Shown: one piece after another, positions 1-31,517 of the stretch
Position numbering within the stretch: position 1 is the stretch's first letter
Layout: each line of letters opens with the position of its first letter
Assembly (NCBI GenBank): GCA_020160975.1
Contig: JAIUPJ010000001.1
Span: 90,001-122,000 of the forward strand
DNA: 32,000 nt
From: Candidatus Saccharimonadota bacterium
GTDB taxonomy: Bacteria; Patescibacteriota; Saccharimonadia; Saccharimonadales; Saccharimonadaceae
Direction: 5' to 3'
Notes under the pieces: model-generated
What the model was told of the DNA's origin: nothing
Databases searched by the model: none
The model's input: only the letters and a program-made list of their open reading frames with translations
Translations under genes and position numbers: made by a program

Positions 1-110
1 AGTCAAAGCGCCAATCCTTGGGCAAGGCAAGTAAAAAAATGGTCGAGCCATATTTAATGCCAAAAATCATGGACCAGATGATTGAAATATATAAGAAGGT
101 CTTAGCATGA
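1..110 (+). CDS. 3' end of an ORF entering from the left edge (tail resembles group-1 glycosyltransferase C-termini)
   Basis: Frame starting at nt 3 is open from the edge and reads SKRQSLGKASKKMVEPYLMPKIMDQMIEIYKKVLA, then TGA at 108-110. This overlaps the ATG at 107 (ATGA coupling). Family call is by resemblance only. Confidence 0.35.
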   Translation, partial: SKRQSLGKASKKMVEPYLMPKIMDQMIEIYKKVLA

Positions 111-1207
111 GTAACGAGCTGAGTCTGCTATTCTATGTTTCGACTTTCTTACTTTCGGTAGCTGCATTTTGGTATATAAATCAGTCTAAGAGCAGGCGAA
201 TATTTGTATTTTCTTCTATACTTCCTCTTGCACTAATGTCTGCTCTTAGATTTGAAGTAGGCACTGATTTTACTGCATACGCAGATGGATATAGAATCTT
301 GTCTAATCTTAGCCTGACAGAGTATATATCGACTTATAGTGATATATATGAAGTAGGTACTTATATCGTCGCACAAATTTCCAGCTTGTTGCCATTTTCT
401 ACTAACGTTTTTTTTGGTATATTTAGTTTTTTTACTCTTTTTGTAGCGGCTCTTGCATTAAAAAAATATAATGTTTTTTACCCGTGGTTGACTATGCTCC
501 TTTATGTTTTTATTATGTTCCCGACTTCTTTTAATGGGGTACGCCAGATGTTAGCTGTGTCGTTATTTGTCTATGCAACTACGTTTATTTTTAGCAAGCA
601 GTTATGGAGATTTGTCTTTTTAATTCTGATTGCTGGAGCTTTTCACAAGACTGCATTGTTGCTTATTCCAGTCTATGCAATAGGTAGGATTTTCTATAAA
701 CATAAAAAAATCAGTATTCGTAGTGTAGTCTCTATAGTTTTTATAGCATGTTCGGTAATCGTATTATCTATTTTTATAGTACCTAAACTTACTAGTGTAT
801 CGTTATTTGAGAAATATGATACTTATCAGGTTGCAAGAGAAGCTTCGAGTGGATTGATCTTACTCCTTAAGTCAGCCGTGTTGGCTGTGGTGTTGTTATT
901 CTATAGGTACATCTTCAAGTATCCCTATGCGGCCTTCTGTGTCGTTATGTCTATCATAGAAATAACTATATTGTATATCTATCGCAACTCTGTAGATTTA
1001 GCCAGGTTTGCTTTGTATTTCGCTCCTTTCTCGTTACTTCTCATATCTCTCGTACCTAGATCTTTTGGGCCTGGGGGCAGAGTTTTATCGTCCTTGCTAA
1101 TAGCGATATATGCTATGGTTCTGTTTTTCATATCGTTTTATGTACTTGGTGGTTCAGGGATATTTCCGTATCAATATGAACTAAGTGTTGCTGGAGTAAT
1201 AAAATGA
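107..1207 (+). CDS. EpsG-family polysaccharide polymerase-like integral membrane protein
   Basis: 366-aa ORF with many hydrophobic segments. N-terminal ALRFEVGTDFTAYADGY motif is typical of the EpsG family. ATGA overlaps with both neighbours. Confidence 0.75.
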   Translation: MSNELSLLFYVSTFLLSVAAFWYINQSKSRRIFVFSSILPLALMSALRFEVGTDFTAYADGYRILSNLSLTEYISTYSDIYEVGTYIVAQISSLLPFSTNVFFGIFSFFTLFVAALALKKYNVFYPWLTMLLYVFIMFPTSFNGVRQMLAVSLFVYATTFIFSKQLWRFVFLILIAGAFHKTALLLIPVYAIGRIFYKHKKISIRSVVSIVFIACSVIVLSIFIVPKLTSVSLFEKYDTYQVAREASSGLILLLKSAVLAVVLLFYRYIFKYPYAAFCVVMSIIEITILYIYRNSVDLARFALYFAPFSLLLISLVPRSFGPGGRVLSSLLIAIYAMVLFFISFYVLGGSGIFPYQYELSVAGVIK

Positions 1208-2031
1208 AAAAAAAATCACCCGAGGTCTCTGTCGTTATGTCTGAGTTTAATACACCAAAGGAGTACCTTTTTGAATCAATAAATAGTGTTTTGGTTCAAA
1301 CTTATAAAAACTTTGAGTTCATCATAATAGATGATAGCCATGACCAAAAATTAAAAGAATTGATTGAACAAAAATATGACGACTCACGAATAAAGATAAT
1401 AGAAAACGGTTACAATAAGGGTTTTGTGTACTCACTAAACAGCGGCATAAAACAGGCCATGGGTAAGTATATTATGCGAATGGATACTGATGACTTAATT
1501 CCGTCAGACAGATTTGAAAAACTTGTGAACTTCATAGAAGTAAACCCTCAATATTCAGTCGTTTCAAGTATGGCAGTTGAGTTTTCTGGAAAAATGAAGT
1601 TCGGTATCAACGGTACTCCTGGTGAGAAAAGCAGAAAAGATGTTATGAGGGGCGACACTCCAATTCACGCAGCCTCTATCATGCTTAAGAACGACCTGGA
1701 GGATATAGGTTTGTATAGAAATGATTTTCTTAGAGCCGAGGATCTGGCATTATGGTGCGAGTTACTGCTGGCAAATAAGAAACTTTTTGTAATTGATGAC
1801 ACTCTATATGAATACAGAGTTAATCCGGGTGACTATAAAAAACGAACCTTTAAAAACAGGAAAGGAGAAATCAGTGCCAGGCTCTATTTTTACCCCAAAC
1901 TAGGTGCTGGACCTATTGAATATTTGAGGATAATTAAAAGCATACTAGCTGGGTTGGCTCCAATGTTTCTTATTAGAATTTACAGAAGTAAAATTGCTTT
2001 AGCAAGAGTCAAAGGGCAAGATAATGGATAA
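1204..2031 (+). CDS. Family 2 glycosyltransferase
   Basis: VSVVMSEFNTPKEYLFESINSVLVQTYKNFEFIIIDD followed by MDTDD (DXD) is a GT2 N-terminal Rossmann-like signature. Start overlaps the upstream stop. Confidence 0.85.
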   Translation: MKKKSPEVSVVMSEFNTPKEYLFESINSVLVQTYKNFEFIIIDDSHDQKLKELIEQKYDDSRIKIIENGYNKGFVYSLNSGIKQAMGKYIMRMDTDDLIPSDRFEKLVNFIEVNPQYSVVSSMAVEFSGKMKFGINGTPGEKSRKDVMRGDTPIHAASIMLKNDLEDIGLYRNDFLRAEDLALWCELLLANKKLFVIDDTLYEYRVNPGDYKKRTFKNRKGEISARLYFYPKLGAGPIEYLRIIKSILAGLAPMFLIRIYRSKIALARVKGQDNG

Positions 2032-2995
2032 GTCTCAACTCGCATCTGTCGATATCGTAATCCCTGTATACAACGCTTCGCAAAGCATAAGGTATTGCAT
2101 CGATGCCGTGCTAACACAATCGCACAAGAATTTTCGAATGATCTTGATAGATGACGGTTCGACAGACGGATCCTTTGATATTTGTGAAGAATATGCAAAA
2201 AGATACCCAAATATCAAATTAGTACACCAAAATAACTCAGGGGTATCAGCCGCGAGGAACCAGGGACTAAACTTGGTTAAAGCTGATTTTTTTACTTTTA
2301 TAGATAGTGATGATCTGATATACAGTAGCTGTGTGTCAGATCTTGTAGATGCGGCACTTGAACATGATAGCGACTTAGTAACGGCTAATATCTTTAGGAC
2401 AAAGAATATCCATGATAGAGTGCCCGGCAATGATGTGAATCTGGCTTATGATATAGCTGCTAGCACGGCAATAGAAGAGCTGCTATACGGTCGGCGCATC
2501 AAGAATCATCCAGTAGCAAGGCTGTACAGATCTGATAAACTTTCGAGCGTAAGATTTGATGAGACTATATCTATAGGAGAAGACATGGACTACACTTTTC
2601 GATGTCTTCGCAAGGTTAATAAAGTAACGTTAGTCGATAAAGTCTTGTATAACTACATAAATAAGGAGGGTAGTGCCATGAATAGCAATTTTACGGCTAC
2701 GAGAGCAGACTCTTTTCGAGCAGCTCGAAAGATTTATGAAGCCACAGGGGGGGGAGATGCATCGATATCTAAGCTGTTTGACGAAGCATTTGCAATAGCT
2801 ACTTTAGCAAGGCCTCATCGCAATAGCTTCGAAAAAATATATATAGAATGTAGCCGAGTCAGCAAGAAATTGGCGTTTCAAGTGTTTTGCAATTCTAAGG
2901 TTAGATTACGCCAAAGGGTTTATGCATTTTTAGTAATTCTTAATGTAGACTTAGCTTTATTAATTGCAGGTGTGAAGCGAAGGTTTAGAGGTTAG
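2024..2995 (+). CDS. Family 2 glycosyltransferase
   Basis: VDIVIPVYNASQSIRYCIDAVLTQSHKNFRMILIDDGSTDGS and DSDD motifs. Overlaps the previous gene by 8 nt. Confidence 0.85.
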   Translation: MDKSQLASVDIVIPVYNASQSIRYCIDAVLTQSHKNFRMILIDDGSTDGSFDICEEYAKRYPNIKLVHQNNSGVSAARNQGLNLVKADFFTFIDSDDLIYSSCVSDLVDAALEHDSDLVTANIFRTKNIHDRVPGNDVNLAYDIAASTAIEELLYGRRIKNHPVARLYRSDKLSSVRFDETISIGEDMDYTFRCLRKVNKVTLVDKVLYNYINKEGSAMNSNFTATRADSFRAARKIYEATGGGDASISKLFDEAFAIATLARPHRNSFEKIYIECSRVSKKLAFQVFCNSKVRLRQRVYAFLVILNVDLALLIAGVKRRFRG

Positions 2996-3004
2996 GGTCG
3001 AATC

Positions 3005-4087
3005 ATGAAAAGGGCAATCCTACACTTTTATTCTGCAAATAATTTAGGTGATGATCTTTTTGTGGGGATTATCACTTGTAGGTATGATGCAATTTTTACA
3101 TTAATTACATACCAGCATAACGACTATTTTTCTAAAATATCTAATACAAGGTTAACATCGGGTAACTTTAACAAGTTCTTATCTAGAACGTTAAAATTTA
3201 TAACCGGCCGGAATAATCCTCTACTCAGATACCATGCAAAAACCAACGATTTGATGATATACGCAGGAGGATCAATATTTATAGAGGGAAATAATGCGGG
3301 ACACTGGGTGAAAGAAGCAGATTTTTACAATAGTCTAAGGATCCCTTACTATTTGCTTGGATCAAATATTGGCCCCTATGAGTCAGATAGTTTTTTGAGT
3401 ACGATAAAAATTATATTAAATGGAGCTGAAGATGTTTGTCTTCGTGATACTGCATCGTACGATTTGGTAAAAGATTTGCCAAATGCTCGAGTCGCTTCAG
3501 ATATAGCGTTTACGCTAGATACGAGCCCATATGATACGACAAGTGATAAATTAGCTGTATTCTCAGTTATTAACTGCGATGATCGATTTAGCCCGAAAAT
3601 CACGCAGAAGTATGAGCAAGAAATCGCGAAACTTTCGCGTAATCTAGCCGCCGCTGGATACAGAGTTGTACTTATGTCTTTCTGCAAGTACGAAGGTGAC
3701 GAAGATGCTATACGTCGGATAATCACTAACGGTGGCGAGGGTTTTAAAGAGATTGTTTCGACGCATTATTATAATGGCGATCTCGAGAAATCATTAGCAC
3801 TGTTGGCAAAGAGTGAGATTATCGTAGCGTCACGTTTTCATGGAGCAATCCTTGGCTTGTTGTTCGGTAAAAAGGTGCTACCAATGGCATATAGTTCTAA
3901 AACTACAAATATTCTAAAAGACATGAGTTTTCGAGGTCCAATTATAGATATAAATAACATATACGAGTTCGACGGCTCAAGTTTTAACTTTAGCACTCTC
4001 GAAGTAAATAATGTCAGTGACCAGGTAAAACTCGCGGAAAAACAATTCCAAGAACTAGACAAGGTCCTAGAGAAGCGTAAAAAGTAA
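3005..4087 (+). CDS. Polysaccharide pyruvyl transferase family protein
   Basis: N-terminal NNLGDDLF and C-terminal SRFHGAILGLLFGKKVLPMAYSSKT match the pyruvyl transferase (CsaB/WcaK-like) pattern as I recall it. Confidence 0.75.
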   Translation: MKRAILHFYSANNLGDDLFVGIITCRYDAIFTLITYQHNDYFSKISNTRLTSGNFNKFLSRTLKFITGRNNPLLRYHAKTNDLMIYAGGSIFIEGNNAGHWVKEADFYNSLRIPYYLLGSNIGPYESDSFLSTIKIILNGAEDVCLRDTASYDLVKDLPNARVASDIAFTLDTSPYDTTSDKLAVFSVINCDDRFSPKITQKYEQEIAKLSRNLAAAGYRVVLMSFCKYEGDEDAIRRIITNGGEGFKEIVSTHYYNGDLEKSLALLAKSEIIVASRFHGAILGLLFGKKVLPMAYSSKTTNILKDMSFRGPIIDINNIYEFDGSSFNFSTLEVNNVSDQVKLAEKQFQELDKVLEKRKK

Positions 4088-5541
4088 TGTCCAAGCAAAA
4101 AGACCTCATCAAAAACACCATCATCATAGCCTTTGGCAAATTATCAACGCAGTTTTTGACGTTTCTTTTGTTGCCTCTCTATACGTCGTATCTTACTACT
4201 AGTGAGTTCGGTACGGTTGACTTAGCTATGACTTATATCGGGCTGTTGGCGCCACTTATTATGGTCGCCCTAGAAATGGCAGCCTTCCGCTTCCTCATAG
4301 ATGCCAGGGACATTGAAAAAGAGAAGATACGGGTGATAACCAACGTTTTGCAGATGGTCGGGCTGTTTGCGGTTATAGCCTTGCTTTTGTTCGCGGTCGT
4401 TAGTAGATTTGTAGCAGTGCCTTTTGGCTGGTTGATGCCGGGTGTTGTGCTGGCAATTATCGCATCAAACATGCTCCTTCAATTTGCACGTGGTTTTGGT
4501 GACAACGTGAAGTACTCCATAGGAGGGGTAGTGGCAGGTGTCACAACTATTGCTGCAAATATTTTATTCATCGTCTACATGGGCATGGGGGCGGAGGGTA
4601 TGTTGTTTGGCGTGCTGATAGGCAACTTGGCGGTTGCTGCGTATTTATTTGTCGTGTTGAAGGTTCACCGGTTCATAATACTATCAGCAAGCGATAAGTC
4701 TTTGAAGTTAAAGTTACTGCGCTACTCAGCACCACTAGTGCCAAACGGTATGTCGTGGTGGGCTATCAACGCCGCCGATCGTACTGTAGTGGCTATAGTG
4801 CTAGGCGTAGCGTCGAACGGTATTTATGCGGTTGCCTATAAATTTCCAATGATTTTTAACGGTTTGTTTTCGTTCTTTGGTATGTCTTGGACAGAGTCAG
4901 CATCTATGAATATCGAGAAACGCGATCGTGATGAGTTCTTTTCACAAACAATGAATGCAAGTATCCGACTTTTCGGCTCACTCGGGCTATGTATTATCGC
5001 TGGCGTATCATTGGTATTCACACTACTTGTGAGCCAAACCTATCACGAAGCATATATGTACATTCCCCTCCTCATAGTCGGTTCATTTTTTAATTCCATC
5101 GTGAGCCTATACGGCGCAATTTATATTGCTAAAAAAATGACAAAGCAGGTTATGAACAGTTCTATCATTGCCGCTTTCATTAGCATTTTGCTTACCGTTT
5201 GTCTTATCTCGCAAATTGGGCTATTCGCACCTGCGCTTGCAATGGTAGCCGCATATGGTTCGATGGCCGTCTACCGTCACCATGATGTTAAAAAATTTGT
5301 GAACATTACTTACGATTACAAATCATTCACGATACTAGCACTAGCGTTCGTAGCTGTGGCAACTTTGTACTACATAAATAGCCCACTATTAAATATATTG
5401 AATGTACTTGTAGCGCTAGGGATCTCTGTTATCCTCAACCGCTCGATCATCAGCATAATCAAAACAAAACTTTTCGCCCGGCTACGACCACTCACGCCCG
5501 AGCAACAGATACTCGAAGATATCGAGGAAAAGAAGCTGTAG
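4087..5541 (+). CDS. wzx: Wzx-type oligosaccharide flippase (MOP superfamily)
   Basis: 484-aa polytopic membrane protein. N-terminal KNTIIIAFGKLSTQFLTFLLLPLYTSYLTTSEFG is typical of polysaccharide biosynthesis flippases. ATG shares 1 nt with the upstream TAA. Confidence 0.8.
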   Translation: MSKQKDLIKNTIIIAFGKLSTQFLTFLLLPLYTSYLTTSEFGTVDLAMTYIGLLAPLIMVALEMAAFRFLIDARDIEKEKIRVITNVLQMVGLFAVIALLLFAVVSRFVAVPFGWLMPGVVLAIIASNMLLQFARGFGDNVKYSIGGVVAGVTTIAANILFIVYMGMGAEGMLFGVLIGNLAVAAYLFVVLKVHRFIILSASDKSLKLKLLRYSAPLVPNGMSWWAINAADRTVVAIVLGVASNGIYAVAYKFPMIFNGLFSFFGMSWTESASMNIEKRDRDEFFSQTMNASIRLFGSLGLCIIAGVSLVFTLLVSQTYHEAYMYIPLLIVGSFFNSIVSLYGAIYIAKKMTKQVMNSSIIAAFISILLTVCLISQIGLFAPALAMVAAYGSMAVYRHHDVKKFVNITYDYKSFTILALAFVAVATLYYINSPLLNILNVLVALGISVILNRSIISIIKTKLFARLRPLTPEQQILEDIEEKKL

Positions 5542-9943: not shown

Positions 9944-9972
9944 ATTATAGCAAATTATTTCGTTTATGTCAA
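9944..9972 (-). promoter_or_regulatory. Sigma-70-type promoter of the surface protein gene
   Basis: Minus strand reads TTGACA (9967-9972) N17 TATAAT (9944-9949) with a TGc extended -10. Confidence 0.6.
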
Positions 9973-12967: not shown

Positions 12968-12976
12968 CCTACGTTT

Positions 12977-13070
12977 CGGAACCTTTCCGACGTACCGTAC
13001 AGCGACTGCAGCACTGATGCCCCTAAGAGACATCAAGCGCGTAGAATGATACGGAGTGGGAGATTTTGAG
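12977..13070 (+). repeat. Copy 1 of a ~100-nt structured repeat (core CCGTACAGCGACTGCAGC at 12995-13012)
   Basis: About three quarters identical by my hand alignment to the reverse complement of 29316-29413. Shares the core and outer arms with 29192-29300. Confidence 0.8.
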
Positions 13071-13087
13071 ATGTAGGCCAACTTTCA

Positions 13088-13188: not shown

Positions 13189-13302
13189 ATGTCGAAGTTC
13201 GTCAAGCTCGCGGTGGGCGCGCTGGCCCTGCTGAGCCTCGCTGCCGTCGGTGGCATCATCCACGAGCTCATGCGCGATGACGGATCGGGCCTGCCATACT
13301 GA
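13189..13302 (+). CDS. 37-aa hydrophobic peptide (single TM), unknown function
   Basis: ATG 8 nt after GAGGGGG. Sequence MSKFVKLAVGALALLSLAAVGGIIHELMRDDGSGLPY. 32 of 37 codons end in G/C (my count), a strong frame-specific bias. Confidence 0.45.
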   Translation: MSKFVKLAVGALALLSLAAVGGIIHELMRDDGSGLPY

Positions 13303-22299: not shown

Positions 22300-22448
22300 A
22301 TACACTACTGTTATCGTTAGTGAATATTTAGGGTAACTCCTGCCACTGACGCTCACGAAGCATGGTGGAGAAATCCATAGTGCTACATCACATCCAAGGA
22401 TGGGGCTCTCCCAGCTCCAGATACGATAGAAGAAAGAAGGTGATCGAG

Positions 22449-23261
22449 GTGAAGCAATACCTCGACCTGCTCGACCACGTTCGCACACAAGGTGTCGAGA
22501 AGGCCGACCGCACCGGTACCGGCACGCGCAGCGTGTTTGGCTACCAGATGCGATTCGACCTGCAAAAAGGCTTCCCGGTCCTGACGACCAAGAAGCTGCA
22601 CCTACGCAGCATCGTCGGCGAGCTCCTCTGGTTCCTGCGAGGCGACACTAACGTCAAGTGGCTGCAGGAGCACGGCATCACCATTTGGGACGAGTGGGCC
22701 GACGAAGACGGCAACCTCGGGCCCGTCTACGGTCATCAGTGGCGGTCATGGCCGACACCCGATGGTCGACACATCGACCAGATCACTCAGGTGATCGAGT
22801 CGATTCGAACCAACCCGGACGGTCGACGGCACATCGTCAGCGCATGGAATGTCGCAGACGTCGACAGCATGGCCCTCCCGCCGTGCCACTTCCTGTTCCA
22901 GTTCTACGTGCGACCAGCGAGCGATGGTGGCAAGCCCTATCTGGACTGTCAGCACTACCAGCGTAGTGCCGACGTCTTCCTGGGCGTTCCGTTCAACATC
23001 GCTAGCTACGCACTGCTGGTGATGATTGTTGCGCAGTTTGTCGACATGCGACCAGGCGAGTTCATCTGGGTCGGCGGAGACACACACCTGTACTTGAATC
23101 ACCTGGAGCAAGCCGAGCTACAGCTCACTCGTGAGCCCAAGCCGCTGCCGCAGATGGTCATCAAGCGCAAGCCTGGCTCCATCGACGACTACGAGATCGA
23201 CGACTTTGAGCTCATTGGCTACGAAGCCGACCAGAGCATCAAGGCACCGATCGCCGTCTGA
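22449..23261 (+). CDS. thyA: Thymidylate synthase ThyA
   Basis: Near-canonical over the full length: [10 protein letters not shown] ... DRTGTGT ... [17 protein letters not shown] ... ALPPCH ... [21 protein letters not shown] ... GDTHLY. GTG start 22449, 6 nt after AAGGTGA. The upstream 29 codons of the ORF track are not ThyA-like. Confidence 0.95.
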
Positions 23262-25703: not shown

Positions 25704-25983
25704 TACTCCCATCTGTTGACGAGACACTCCTGTTGTGATACATTTGTATGTAGACATTGCCAAAGACAGTAGCGGGTGAATAATCGCCGATAAGAAGCTA
25801 CCGAGGGAATTACATTCTTTCAGAAGTCTTTGCGCGTAGGTGCAGAGATTTTTTATTTCGCAGTGGTCTACCTTAACAATGTGGTCGAACAGAATTACAC
25901 CTTTTAACAAAGCTAACCTAGAAAGTTGTCATGATGACGAAAGTCATCGTGGCGGGTTTCGGCAAAAAGGAGAAGATTATCCC

Positions 25984-27143: not shown

Positions 27144-27163
27144 TTGCAGTATGTTGTAATCTA

Positions 27164-27192
27164 TTGACAAATACTAATACTTGTGCTATTAT
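27164..27192 (+). promoter_or_regulatory. Consensus promoter
   Basis: TTGACA (27164-27169) N17 TATTAT (27187-27192) with TGc. Confidence 0.6.
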
Positions 27193-27242
27193 GTATACTC
27201 AGAAAGTCACCCATCCATCCCACAACGAAGTAGGAGAATTCA

Positions 27243-27755
27243 GTGGCTCGCACCACCAACACCCGTCGCCCCCAGAGGCCCAAGGCTGACAAGTTCGGTC
27301 TGGTGTTCGACAGCAATGTCGGCAAGCAGTACCGCAAGATAAAGCGTGACGACAACAACTCGGCACGTCCGCAGCGCAGCCCTCACTACATGGAGTACTT
27401 CGTACTTCGCGGTCGGCGCATTCGCGATGATGCGGCCACCTGGGGATGTCACGAGCTCCTCGACGAAGTCGAGAGCTGCAGTGTCCAGCCGAGCACCCTA
27501 CGCGTGCCTCGGCGGTACTCGACCAAGACCCCCGCCAAGGTGGTCAACGCGCCGGTGCCGCTCAATCGGAGCTTCGAACTGCCAGTCAAGACTCGGTTCT
27601 CCGAGTTGCGACGCAGTCGGCTCAGCGATGCCGAGCTAGCCAAGCTGCTGCCGTCACACATCCGTGTGCGCCCGCAGCCGGCCAGGGTCACCTTGGAGCT
27701 CCCGAAGCACCTGCGGTGCCCGGAGGACGAGGAGCAGCGTTCGCCCTGCGCCTAG
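27243..27755 (+). CDS. Arg/Pro-rich basic hypothetical protein (170 aa), high-GC codon usage
   Basis: GTG 6 nt after AGGAGAA. 33 of the first 40 codons end in G/C (my count), so this frame rather than the overlapping ORFs is coding. No domain recognised. Confidence 0.55.
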   Translation: MARTTNTRRPQRPKADKFGLVFDSNVGKQYRKIKRDDNNSARPQRSPHYMEYFVLRGRRIRDDAATWGCHELLDEVESCSVQPSTLRVPRRYSTKTPAKVVNAPVPLNRSFELPVKTRFSELRRSRLSDAELAKLLPSHIRVRPQPARVTLELPKHLRCPEDEEQRSPCA

Positions 27756-27765
27756 GGCGAAACTT

Positions 27766-27813
27766 GCGGCCCGTTTCTTGCACTCAGTGCAGGAAGCGGG
27801 CCGCTTTCTATTT
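27766..27813 (+). terminator. Long GC-rich hairpin terminator
   Basis: 18-bp stem 27766-27783 / 27787-27804 (two G-U), loop TCA, followed by TTTCTATTT. Confidence 0.7.
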
Positions 27814-27873
27814 GTGTATATTTTTACAACGATTTTCTCTTCACCTCATATCTCACTGTGGAGAAAAAAGCCC

Positions 27874-27945: not shown

Positions 27946-28461
27946 ATGTCTGAATTACCAGAAAAACAAGTCAAGCGACTCAAATCGCTGATTCAAGAGG
28001 CGGAGACCAACCTAGCCGCTGCCAAAGAACTACTGATGAGCATCATGGGCGACGATGGCCATGCTATCACCCCAACCAATAGCCGCGAAGAAGTCAGCGG
28101 CAAGGTGATCGAAGGTGTCTTCGATGGCCAAGTCATGATTGGCCCCGACGGCAAGAGCTATCCAGTGCCTGCCAACTATGCGAGCAAGAGCAAGCTAGTC
28201 GAAGGCGACATTTTGAAACTCACCATCGCCGATGACGGCGGCTTTATCTACAAGCAGATTGGCCCAGTCCCACGCAAACAGATTATCGGTACTCTGGTGC
28301 AACACGACGGTGCCTACTATGTAGAGGCCAGCGGGCGCGAATACAGGATTCTCCTCGCCAGTGTGACCTATTTCCGTATCAATATCGGTGACCAAGTCAC
28401 TATCATCGTGCCAGAGGACAATCCTGAGGCAGTGTGGGCAGCAGTAGAGGCGGCGCTGTAG
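27946..28461 (+). CDS. Hypothetical protein (171 aa): N-terminal helix plus two small beta-rich modules
   Basis: Clean ORF with average composition. GPDGKSYPVPANYASKSKLVEGDILKL and NIGDQVTIIVPED look like repeated small barrel modules. No family name that I can support. Confidence 0.6.
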   Translation: MSELPEKQVKRLKSLIQEAETNLAAAKELLMSIMGDDGHAITPTNSREEVSGKVIEGVFDGQVMIGPDGKSYPVPANYASKSKLVEGDILKLTIADDGGFIYKQIGPVPRKQIIGTLVQHDGAYYVEASGREYRILLASVTYFRINIGDQVTIIVPEDNPEAVWAAVEAAL

Positions 28462-29315: not shown

Positions 29316-29413
29316 CTCAAAACCTCCCACTCCACACCCCCCTACGCGCCTGATATCTCTTACAGAGACACCAGGGCTGCAGTCGCTTTACGGTGTGTCG
29401 GAGAGGTTTTGAG
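29316..29413 (-). repeat. Copy 3 of the structured repeat, inverted orientation
   Basis: The plus strand carries GCTGCAGTCGCTTTACGG (29376-29393), the reverse complement of the core. Closest relative of copy 1. Confidence 0.8.
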
Positions 29414-29430
29414 GTCTAGAGCGTAAAACC

Positions 29431-29459
29431 TTGACATTACGATAATTTTTTGCTATAAT
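29431..29459 (+). promoter_or_regulatory. Consensus promoter
   Basis: TTGACA (29431-29436) N17 TATAAT (29454-29459) with TGc. Confidence 0.65.
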
Positions 29460-29528
29460 AAATATTGAATTATCCACCACTCAGCTGTGCGGATAGTCCG
29501 CACCTATCAAGTAGAGAAGAGACCCCCG

Positions 29529-29984
29529 ATGGGAAACACCAGTGTTATCGAGTCACTCGAGGGCATCATGGACTACGTCCTTCGTCTCGAGCGGCAGATC
29601 GGTAACCTCGAGGCCATGCTCCGCATAGCGGAGGCGCGCACGGCGCAGCCGCACGCTTGCTACCGCGAGGGTTACGTCGATGCGTCGCGTCAGTTCGAAC
29701 AGATCGCCGGCCGCATCGGCAAGGCCTGGGGAGCTCGTGTCGACCCCGGCAAGAGTGCCTCGAAAAAGCCGAGCTCCGAGCTGCTCGCAAAGAGCATCGA
29801 CACGCTCGGTCTGCCGACGCGCATCACCAACCCGATGCACGTGAACAACATCCACACGATCGGCGACCTCATCAAGTGCGATGAGATTGACCTGATCACG
29901 ATGCGCAACTTCGGTGAAGAGGCGCTCAAGAAGGTGGAGTCCGAACTTAGCAAGCTCGGGCTGTCCCTTCGCCGGAACGACTGA
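29529..29984 (+). CDS. Stand-alone protein with RNA polymerase alpha-subunit C-terminal-domain-like (HhH) module
   Basis: LLAKSIDTLGLPTRITNPMHVNNIHTIGDLIKCDEIDLITMRNFGEEALKKVESELSKLGLSL aligns by eye with E. coli RpoA CTD ([62 protein letters not shown]). 32 of the first 40 codons end in G/C. Start is uncertain: ATG 29529 preferred over GTG 29487, which lies inside a perfect hairpin. Confidence 0.65.
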   Translation: MGNTSVIESLEGIMDYVLRLERQIGNLEAMLRIAEARTAQPHACYREGYVDASRQFEQIAGRIGKAWGARVDPGKSASKKPSSELLAKSIDTLGLPTRITNPMHVNNIHTIGDLIKCDEIDLITMRNFGEEALKKVESELSKLGLSLRRND

Positions 29985-30008
29985 ACCACCCCGCCTCTAG
30001 CGGTTGAG

Positions 30009-30045
30009 ACCCCGTCTCCCGCTGCATGAGGCGGGGTTTCAATTT
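30009..30045 (+). terminator. GC-rich hairpin terminator candidate
   Basis: ACCCCGTCTC (30009-30018) / GAGGCGGGGT (30028-30037), then TTCAATTT. The 3' arm can alternatively pair perfectly with ACCCCGCCTC at 29988-29997. Confidence 0.5.
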
Positions 30046-30110
30046 GCGTGCGAACGTATCGACCAAATCTACAACAGACAGCCGTCACCAAAGCAGCTAT
30101 AATGAGAGCA

Positions 30111-31517
30111 ATGGGGCAGGCGTTATATAGGAAATATCGGAGCAAATCGCTCGACGAGATCGTCGGGCAGTCGCATATTACCGATATGCTGCGTCGTGCG
30201 ATCAAAGCCGACAAAATCGCCCACGCCTACCTACTAACCGGGCCGAGGGGAGTTGGCAAAACGTCAATCGCTCGAATATTGGCGCACGAAATCAATCAGT
30301 TACCATACAGCGACGAATCAGTTCACCTTGATATTATCGAAATCGATGCCGCGAGCAACAACTCGGTGGAGGACATCCGTGACCTGAGAGAGCGCGTGCA
30401 GATCGCCCCGACCAGTGCTCGCAAAAAAGTCTACATCATCGATGAAGTTCATATGCTGTCTAAGCCGGCGTTCAATGCGCTCCTCAAAACGCTCGAGGAG
30501 CCGCCAGAGCATGTGGTATTTATCCTGGCAACAACTGATGTCGACAAACTCCCAGCCACAATCATCAGCCGTTTGCAGCGCTATAACTTTCGTACCATTC
30601 ACCCCAATGATGCCACACGCCACTTGCGTACCATCGCTAATGCAGAGCGGATCGATATCGACGATGCAGCGCTGGCGCTAATCGCACGCCATGGCAACGG
30701 CAGCTTCCGCGATAGCATCAGCTTGCTCGACCAATTGCAGCATCTTAGCGACGGTGCGATCGACCAAACGCTGGTCGAACAAGTACTTGGCCTAGCCGAT
30801 CACGAGCGTCTTGCTGGGTTAATCGATGCCGCGATGGCCGGCGACCTGAAGACGCTGGTTCAGATCCTCGATGACAGCGAAAAGCGCGGCATGTCAGCGA
30901 TCATCCTAACCGGGCAGCTCATCCACTATGTGAGCAGTCAGGTATTGCAGCGGCCTGCATTGCTGCCGCTGCTCGACCAGCTTCTGGAAGTCAGCAAAAG
31001 TGCCTGGCCGCAAGTAAAATTGCTAACCGCGCTCGGTTCTGTTGCACCAGCTAAGAAACCTGCACTCGACAAACCCGCTGAACCTATTCAATCGACAGCC
31101 CCAACACCGACTAACAAGGCAGCCGCTCCTACGGACAACACGGCAAAAGCTGCTGCAACTGTAGCCGCAGCAGACCCGCAGCCATCCGACACTCAGCCTC
31201 CAGCCACACCGCTCACGTCGTCAACGGTATTCGTGTGGGATGACTTTTTGTCTACCGTGCGTGCCTCTGCACCAGGCGCGGCGGCATTGCTCGCAAAGTG
31301 TGGCTATGACTGCCAAAACGATCAACTGACGATATATGCCGGCAAAAAGTTCGCCAAGACGCAGCTCGACAAAGCGGCACCCGCCCTCTACGCTGCGCTG
31401 CAATCGACAGGTTTTACGGGATCACTGGAAGTTGTGCCAGAGCCGGCGCCCCCATCTAATAGCCAAGCAGCAGCTGTTCTTGATATCATGGGCGGAGGAG
31501 AAGAGGTGAGTTTGTAA
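30111..31517 (+). CDS. dnaX: DNA polymerase III subunit gamma/tau
   Basis: ALYRKYRSKSLDEIVGQSHITDMLRRAIKADKIAHAYLLTGPRGVGKTS ... YIIDEVHMLS ... SRLQRY. ATG 30111 lies 7 nt after TATAAT (30098-30103). ATG 30102 is an alternative start. Confidence 0.9.
   Translation: MGQALYRKYRSKSLDEIVGQSHITDMLRRAIKADKIAHAYLLTGPRGVGKTSIARILAHEINQLPYSDESVHLDIIEIDAASNNSVEDIRDLRERVQIAPTSARKKVYIIDEVHMLSKPAFNALLKTLEEPPEHVVFILATTDVDKLPATIISRLQRYNFRTIHPNDATRHLRTIANAERIDIDDAALALIARHGNGSFRDSISLLDQLQHLSDGAIDQTLVEQVLGLADHERLAGLIDAAMAGDLKTLVQILDDSEKRGMSAIILTGQLIHYVSSQVLQRPALLPLLDQLLEVSKSAWPQVKLLTALGSVAPAKKPALDKPAEPIQSTAPTPTNKAAAPTDNTAKAAATVAAADPQPSDTQPPATPLTSSTVFVWDDFLSTVRASAPGAAALLAKCGYDCQNDQLTIYAGKKFAKTQLDKAAPALYAALQSTGFTGSLEVVPEPAPPSNSQAAAVLDIMGGGEEVSL

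Follow-up and report, generated by a model that had tools for sequence, protein, structure and literature searches.

What is a solitary C-terminal domain of the RNA polymerase alpha subunit (alpha-CTD) doing beside dnaX in a Saccharibacteria genome, and why does the protein that carries it change so fast while its promoter stays the same? The gene in question lies in a 32,000-nucleotide (nt) stretch of a Candidatus Saccharimonadota bacterium (GenBank assembly GCA_020160975.1, contig JAIUPJ010000001.1, positions 90,001 to 122,000, forward strand), referred to here as the window and used for all coordinates. Positions 29431-30045 make up a full transcription unit, promoter through terminator, and encode a protein of 151 amino acids (aa). 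An earlier reading of this segment, made from the letters alone (the sequence-only reading), had proposed that the product is a stand-alone alpha-CTD-like protein. What merits follow-up is a contrast: the gene is intact and its promoter conserved, yet the protein diverges ~25 times faster than its neighbors.

The C-terminal half of the protein is a genuine RNA polymerase alpha-CTD. Pfam RNA_pol_A_CTD (PF03118) matches residues 80 to 141 with 51.7 bits (cutoff, 23.8; E value, 7.3e-14), and the NCBIfam rpoA models align through their last ~75 positions only (~220 to 298), reaching 50.4 bits versus the TIGR02027 equivalog cutoff of 227.8. When a profile of the protein family was compared with the PDB, 46 distinct sequences were retrieved, and every one of them was an RpoA CTD; the best was mycobacterial (46 bits) and Escherichia coli scored 42, a difference of only ~4 bits that is not meaningful and speaks neither for nor against an actinobacterial origin. 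Foldseek likewise returned RpoA CTDs alone (1lb2_E; template modeling score, 0.70; root mean square deviation, 3.7 Å). The AlphaFold2 (AF2) models available for this comparison were weak, with a predicted local distance difference test score (pLDDT) of 53 for the 12-sequence alignment and 48 for the CTD alone, and they served only as a consistency check on the compact four-helix, helix-hairpin-helix (HhH) fold of the family. The RpoA landmarks that the sequence-only reading had picked out by eye, IHxIGDL and GLSL, are found at residues 108-114 (as IHTIGDL) and 144-147, and NFGEEAL (127-133) occupies the place of N-L/F-G-x-K-S in RpoA. The domain is homologous to the RpoA CTD (PF03118; E. coli 1COO/1LB2, Mycobacterium smegmatis 5TW1) over ~65 residues, with an identity that we estimate by eye at ~35 to 40%.

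For the comparison of individual residues, we take residue n of the protein to correspond to residue n+167 of E. coli alpha. On this basis, the alignments show that the equivalents of R265, N268, and G296 are retained (R98, N101, and G129). The counterparts of K297, K298, and S299, in contrast, are E/D130, E/V131, and A132; K298 is replaced by Glu or Val and S299 by Ala in all alleles, so that the loss of the lysine pair from the DNA-contact loop, noticed in the earlier reading, holds throughout. In E. coli, the UP-element DNA-binding determinant comprises R265, N268, G296, K298, and S299, and the complete determinant is not present in the aligned protein, as the K298 and S299 equivalents have been replaced. 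The change of the Lys-Lys-Ser loop to Glu-Glu/Val-Ala has probably weakened binding to canonical UP elements, despite retention of the Arg265 and Asn268 equivalents. By the same alignments, D259 and E261, the sigma region 4 contact in E. coli alpha, are not present and have become T92 and G/D94.

The remainder of RpoA is missing. Neither the protein nor any neighboring gene contains an alpha N-terminal domain (alpha-NTD; Pfam RNA_pol_L and RNA_pol_A_bac), and no rpoA was found within the window or its ±10-kb flanks. The gene sits outside the ribosomal-protein/alpha operon, between the orphan orf162 and dnaX, and every locus has the order L10, L7/L12, (orf170), orf171, orf162, alpha-CTD gene, dnaX, dnaB, PMT_2, ybaB, and recR. 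Since there is no alpha-NTD, the neighbors are two orphans and dnaX, and the protein length is constant at 151 to 152 aa in 12 of 12 alleles, the gene is neither a housekeeping rpoA nor a broken fragment of one. The sequence-only reading had likewise set it apart from the housekeeping subunit, and the circumstance that it named as fatal, a disrupted rpoA with the NTD next door, is not what the neighboring genes contain. A broken rpoA, or an alpha subunit split so that a CTD-less RpoA receives its CTD in trans, would account for a genuine alpha-CTD. Such an origin fits poorly, however, with an unrelated N-terminal half, promoter, and terminator of the gene's own, with occurrence in one narrow clade and absence from the nearest outgroup, with the loss of D259 and E261, and with a ratio of nonsynonymous to synonymous change (pN/pS) of 0.85, which is unfit for an essential polymerase domain. 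Because the distribution is narrow and evolution is fast, a trans-acting housekeeping CTD is very unlikely, and we regard this explanation, in either form, as scarcely credible.

The N-terminal half (residues 1 to 78) had no match in Pfam, NCBIfam, PHROGs, or PADLOC and was not covered by any of the best 150 matches of an exhaustive hidden Markov model (HMM) search. A search with this half alone returned nothing and missed its own family members too, so that result is uninformative. AF2 predicts, with low confidence, helices at residues 2-38 and 52-70, and a linker of the KSASKKPSS type follows the second helix. The heptad a/d residues L10, I13, V17, L20, I24, L27, L31, and A34 are invariant or almost so in the 12 alleles, and the long N-terminal helix is probably a dimerizing coiled coil. 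As in RpoA, the CTD would then follow a flexible linker behind a dimerizing module.

Bacterial transcription activators and UP elements dock chiefly on the alpha-CTD, and the alpha-NTD binds the beta and beta' subunits. The explanation that we favor, with about even confidence, is that the gene is a functional, lineage-restricted accessory gene whose product would be a dimeric "mini-alpha" competing for alpha-CTD ligands outside the polymerase. It would consist of a probable coiled-coil helix for dimerization, a basic, flexible linker, and a single HhH domain of the alpha-CTD type. Because it lacks the NTD through which alpha binds beta and beta', it cannot assemble into RNA polymerase. The alpha-CTD-like surface may engage a ligand that normally docks on the alpha-CTD of the polymerase, the candidates being an activator, a phage protein, or AT-rich DNA, and the protein would thereby compete with the enzyme, or serve as a decoy, from outside it.

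The most striking property of the gene is its rate of protein change, which we measured by comparing the DNA of 12 alleles using Nei-Gojobori nonsynonymous (dN) and synonymous (dS) distances. Between the window and allele L005, the alpha-CTD gene has a dN of 0.120 and a dS of 0.128, versus a dN of 0.001 to 0.025 and a dN/dS of 0.02 to 0.36 in ten neighboring genes. Across 45 pairs of close genomes, the gene has a mean dN of 0.090, a dS of 0.108, and a pN/pS of 0.85, compared with 0.0034, 0.089, and 0.05, respectively, for the adjacent 600 nt of dnaX. The protein therefore changes ~25 times faster than its neighbors at similar dS, unlike RpoA, which is an essential subunit under strong purifying selection. 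Neither half of the protein is spared, with a pN/pS of 1.12 for the N-terminal half and 0.73 for the CTD. Alleles L012 and L013 have identical dnaX starts, yet they differ by 28 nonsynonymous and 15 synonymous changes in the alpha-CTD gene. Allele divergence is only ~10% in total and, as dS does not rise above that of the flanks, nothing points to old alleles preserved by long-term balancing selection.

Within the CTD, the positions that vary most are 104-106, 120-127, 130-131, and 134-137, equivalent to E. coli 271-273, 287-294, 297-298, and 301-304. We take the latter to include Fis and CAP contact surfaces and DNA backbone contacts, in which case the variable positions would map to activator-contact surfaces and the DNA loop. 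Rapid amino acid turnover in an intact open reading frame (ORF) with a kept promoter suggests evolutionary conflict with a changing partner. In its boldest form, the proposal would make the protein a hypervariable alpha-CTD mimic in an arms race, either as a decoy for phage factors that target or modify the alpha-CTD or as an episymbiont effector against activator-dependent transcription in the actinobacterial host. We consider this version quite improbable; if it is true, a core domain of transcription would underlie a new class of conflict proteins.

The same domain could also serve an ordinary DNA-binding regulator or nucleoid protein, in which the two alpha-CTD-type HhH domains of a dimer read AT-rich minor grooves, for example, those of the palindromic repeats upstream of the gene, with no competition with the polymerase. 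The near invariance of the L-P-T-R-I-T-N segment and of Gly129 against a highly variable background would suit such a protein, similarly built phage proteins bear the annotation "DNA binding protein," and a palindrome at 29404-29431 abuts the gene's own -35 element. However, K297, K298, and S299 have given way to acidic or neutral residues, a fixed DNA target would predict conservation rather than a pN/pS of 0.85, and the upstream repeats are missing in some alleles that retain the gene. We therefore judge a plain regulator to be unlikely.

Several observations weigh against the mini-alpha proposal. The substitution pattern is indistinguishable from neutral drift: 28 of 114 events are synonymous versus 26 expected from site counts, replacements per codon are Poisson-like (dispersion, 0.99), and replacements show no bias toward conservative changes (mean BLOSUM62 score of -0.30 versus -0.36 for random ones; P = 0.37). 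Absence of stops, taken alone, has a P value of 0.07 under neutrality, and pN/pS is much alike in all six frames. The expected indel count was taken from the AT-rich 5' untranslated region (UTR), which is probably more indel-prone than the coding sequence (CDS), and the alleles were retrieved by protein searches, which biases the sample toward intact copies. The structure models (pLDDT, 53 and 48) are of low confidence. In addition, no phage or defense family matches the protein: PHROGs gave no match, and among the PADLOC defense models there was only a weak match to an internal HhH-like stretch of PglW (E value, 0.0035; 13 bits), with none for the neighbors.

Other observations indicate that the reading frame is nonetheless being kept. 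Through at least 114 substitution events, the 456-nt CDS has acquired no stops, no frameshifts, and one in-frame indel, whereas the adjacent 98 nt of promoter and UTR show 5 indels and 17 substitutions. Hydrophobic positions are slightly protected (17 events versus 24.4 expected; P = 0.046), and there is next to no variation in the heptad core or in L-P-T-R-I-T-N, the segment with the counterparts of Arg265 and Asn268. We conclude that the ORF is maintained and that change at most surface positions is either unconstrained or driven. With 12 recombining alleles, diversifying selection and very weak constraint are not separable, and the protein is either caught in evolutionary conflict or under very weak constraint.

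The main rival to the mini-alpha proposal follows from these tests. The gene may be a near-neutral passenger, recently acquired with a good promoter, under little or no selection on its protein, and not yet broken. A pN/pS of 0.85 to 0.93, the Poisson-like spread of nonconservative replacements, the similarity of pN/pS in all six frames, and the probability of 0.07 for a stop-free history would all be expected of such a gene; at ~10% allele divergence the alpha-CTD signature would outlast drift, and a high GC content at third codon positions (GC3; 0.82) and the absence from the outgroup are compatible with recent foreign origin. It is harder to reconcile with drift that 12 of 12 alleles are intact, that one in-frame indel in 456 nt compares with 5 indels in the adjacent 98 nt, that the -35, TG, and -10 elements are invariant, that hydrophobic and heptad positions are mildly protected, and that the gene has been kept in a second lineage (L012/L013) with a strongly diverged dnaX. 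A drifting passenger is a possibility to be taken seriously, though on balance we doubt it.

Two further accounts of the variability were rejected. An overlapping gene in another frame is at odds with the CDS frame being the only one open in all alleles. Against a diversity-generating retroelement target, variation shows no preference for adenine (variable sites: G, 42; A, 33; C, 29; T, 12), no template repeat or second copy of the gene sequence was found in the window, and no reverse transcriptase is present among the called neighbors.

The transcription unit (Table 1) bears on both the maintenance and the origin of the gene. The -35, TG, and -10 elements are unchanged across the 12 alleles, and substitutions and indels occur in the spacer and the downstream UTR. 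The perfect TTGACA-N17-TATAAT promoter reported in the sequence-only reading is present, and it is not foreign in character. The window contains 2 perfect sites versus 0.01 expected, and 8 sites within one mismatch versus 0.14 expected, so the promoter of the alpha-CTD gene is not unique and promoters close to consensus are native to this genome. At one of these sites (9944-9972, minus strand) and at six more, the sigma-70 consensus is accompanied by an extended -10 of the TGCTATAAT type. The 5' UTR hairpin described earlier is present in all alleles, with a lone arm change (C to T) that turns a G-C pair into a G-U pair and keeps the pairing; the whole 5' UTR, in turn, folds no better than shuffled sequence (z-score, -1.3). 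At the 3' end, the sequence-only reading had envisaged a hairpin arm able to pair with either of two upstream segments. A shorter alternative hairpin does exist (30017-30036), and the structure as a whole is one long, nested terminator with no two-arm switch. The terminator sequence is nearly invariant across the alleles, and dnaX follows at constant spacing in every allele, ~118 nt to its first in-frame ATG.

Table 1. Features of the alpha-CTD transcription unit and its immediate flanks (window coordinates)
Feature	Coordinates	Strand	Remarks
Nested palindromic repeat element upstream of promoter	29191-29430		Fold z-score -9.6; presence varies between alleles
Sigma-70-type promoter, TTGACA-N17-TATAAT plus TG extension	29431-29459	+	12/12 consensus positions
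5' UTR hairpin, GTGCGGA-tag-TCCGCAC	29487-29503	+	Perfect 7-bp stem, within ~60-nt leader
CDS, 151-aa stand-alone alpha-CTD protein	29529-29984	+	ATG start, TGA stop; sole frame without stops in 12/12 alleles
N-terminal half (aa 1-78): long heptad helix, second helix, Lys/Ser/Pro-rich linker	29529-29762	+	AF2 prediction, low confidence
Alpha-CTD (HhH) domain (aa 80-147)	29766-29969	+	Pfam, NCBIfam, PDB profile, and Foldseek matches
Two-part GC-rich terminator hairpin, then T-rich tract	29988-30037	+	-38.1 kcal/mol; z-score -5.5
Ultraconserved stretch: dnaX promoter-like site (30075-30103) and first ~25 dnaX codons	30038-30176	+	3' edge of exchanged segment

The distribution of the gene is narrow. 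When 1.84 billion representative proteins were searched exhaustively with the HMM, 5,661 matched; among the matches listed (at least 74 bits), full-length matches fell in one 50%-identity cluster only, and the remainder cover positions ~80 to 150. At NCBI, the protein is 99% identical to hypothetical protein KC967_01155 (Candidatus Saccharibacteria bacterium, assembly GCA_020428275.1), whose locus lies on contig JAGQNG010000004.1. The samples behind the alleles are sewage and other metagenomes, among them ERZ28655857, ERZ27290313, and SRR6747789. Among DnaX relatives, identity drops from 97 to 99% directly to 67% in the nearest outgroup, at whose locus neither the alpha-CTD gene nor orf162 is present; a 95% identical orf171 is followed by an unrelated 187-aa gene, 44 nt, and then dnaX. 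As the outgroup locus is without the gene, the alpha-CTD gene is a clade-specific occupant of a variable slot, that is, an insertion in one small Saccharibacteria clade. Peptide patterns and the conserved terminator sequence found no match in GTDB species genomes. Neither did JGI metagenome contigs match, although allele L011 itself comes from JGI, and the collection is probably without such short contigs; IMG/VR viral contigs also gave no match.

Atypical codon usage, which the sequence-only reading had taken as foreign, is confirmed as a measurement. The GC3 of the gene is 0.82 (0.78 to 0.84 across alleles), versus 0.4 to 0.65 in most window genes and 0.59 in dcd; only orf170 (0.81) and thyA (0.77) are comparably high. 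This pattern, with orf170 itself present in some genomes and absent from others, is compatible with foreign origin of the alpha-CTD gene. Alternatively, its high GC3 could stem from GC-biased conversion where recombination is frequent.

Recombination has made mosaics of the alleles, with a minimum of 24 recombination events (Rmin) and 46% of informative site pairs failing the four-gamete test. For instance, L007 joins an L015-type N-terminal part to a window-type C-terminal part, and L008 is the reverse. Part of this mosaicism could stem from chimeric metagenome assembly, by which the dN/dS contrast would be unaffected. L012 and L013 reveal the extent of exchange. Their terminator, dnaX promoter, and first ~25 dnaX codons are near-identical to those of the other alleles, whereas past codon ~25 their dnaX differs with a dN of ~0.2 and saturated dS. 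A near-identical segment beside a diverged dnaX indicates that the cassette has been exchanged between lineages. The same pattern places a recombination breakpoint inside dnaX. Gene callers start dnaX at the ATG at 30111, and a TATAAT box ends 7 nt upstream of this codon (30098-30113). The arrangement GCTATAAT-N7-ATG is also found at dnaX in the outgroup (L016, 5985-6003), and, given this spacing and its retention, the dnaX mRNA may be leaderless.

The closest parallels in layout come from phages. Microbacterium phage Mazun gp26 is a 141-aa "DNA binding protein" whose N-terminal region is unique and whose C-terminal part is a single alpha-CTD (Pfam E value, 1.7e-13); relatives are found in three further Microbacterium (Akonivirus) phages, and Bacillus phage Goe8 encodes a 210-aa alpha-CTD protein, c00050. 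Like the Saccharibacteria protein, these phage proteins (141 to 210 aa) carry one C-terminal PF03118 domain, and their Lys298 position is likewise nonbasic (MRNMGNVSL); all are uncharacterized. Microbacterium is an actinobacterium, the group that hosts cultured Saccharibacteria. BLASTP aligns Mazun gp26 with the protein at 30% identity over aa 49 to 148 only, the N-terminal parts are not detectably related, and the similarity is too low for a claim of transfer. In contrast to its phage counterparts, the Saccharibacteria gene lies among chromosomal housekeeping genes.

PF03118 is common outside RpoA, in proteins that combine tetratricopeptide repeats with two CTDs (~440 aa), in chains of up to 12 CTDs, and in small two-CTD proteins; automated pipelines often label these "RNA polymerase subunit alpha." Many of the tandem proteins also replace Lys297 and Lys298 (NFGETSL, NFGQTSL). 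They differ from the protein described here in having several domains per chain and other partner domains, and none has its N-terminal half. Several tandem proteins (2 to 12 copies) carry N-terminal signal peptides. A literature search recovered no study of non-RpoA alpha-CTD proteins or of alpha-CTD mimics, and we regard the protein, which is confined to a single clade of Saccharibacteria, as a previously undescribed architecture within a known domain family.

Thousands of database proteins thus carry an alpha-CTD outside RpoA, none of them studied according to that search, and the present gene offers a small, tractable case, with a single domain, a probable dimer scaffold, and natural alleles that already differ at the DNA loop and at positions mapped to activator surfaces (271-273 and 287-294). 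Should it compete with the alpha-CTD of the polymerase, the protein would be a simple natural tool to rewire activator-dependent transcription globally, and it might take part in conflict between Saccharibacteria and their phages or hosts. As a drifting passenger, it would be a clean example of a foreign gene residing in a reduced episymbiont genome.

The repeat element upstream of the promoter comprises two inverted repeats, one with 28-nt arms that are 96% complementary and one with 24-nt arms (88%), and a 20-nt motif is present three times. One repeat unit is absent in L005 and L006, and both are absent in L014; presence varies among genomes that are otherwise ~95 to 98% identical, giving intergenic lengths of ~190, 245, and 360 nt. 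A related copy lies at about 12970-13075 and shares the core CGTACAGCGACTGCA. The repeat looks like a small mobile or repetitive extragenic palindromic (REP)-like element. Rfam had no match for it, and permissive thresholds produced chance microRNA-like hits on the flanking hairpins only. Adjoining the second copy, a small GC-rich ORF at 13190-13302 encodes a 37-aa hydrophobic peptide (MSKFVKLAVGALALLSLAAVGGIIHELMRDDGSGLPY) and is followed by a strong GC hairpin.

Among the neighboring genes, orf171 (27946-28461) encodes a 171-aa orphan that is 95% identical in the outgroup, where DnaX is 67% identical, and has a dN/dS of 0.04. This conservation is unusual for a protein without an assigned function, its only family signal being a subthreshold SpoVT/AbrB match (MazE_antitoxin) at aa 75 to 100. 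The gene orf170 (27243-27755) encodes a 170-aa, Arg-rich orphan on a segment of ~670 nt (27146-27818; GC, 0.65; GC3, 0.81) and has its own near-consensus promoter at 27164-27192. The window and L001 to L003 contain the segment and L005 lacks it; this is a second insertion, and its GC3 is as high as that of the alpha-CTD gene. GC3 is also raised in a third gene, thyA (22362-23261; thymidylate synthase), at 0.77 versus 0.59 for dcd and 0.49 for tmk. At the other extreme, window positions 1-5500 include ~5 kb with a GC content of 0.34 to 0.45 and a GC3 of 0.32 to 0.36, versus a GC content of ~0.50 to 0.55 elsewhere, and hold five or six genes. Finally, a ribosomal protein L10 leader (RF00557) lies upstream of rplJ at 25742-25864 (50.3 bits versus a gathering score of 44), the sole Rfam family above its gathering score in the window.

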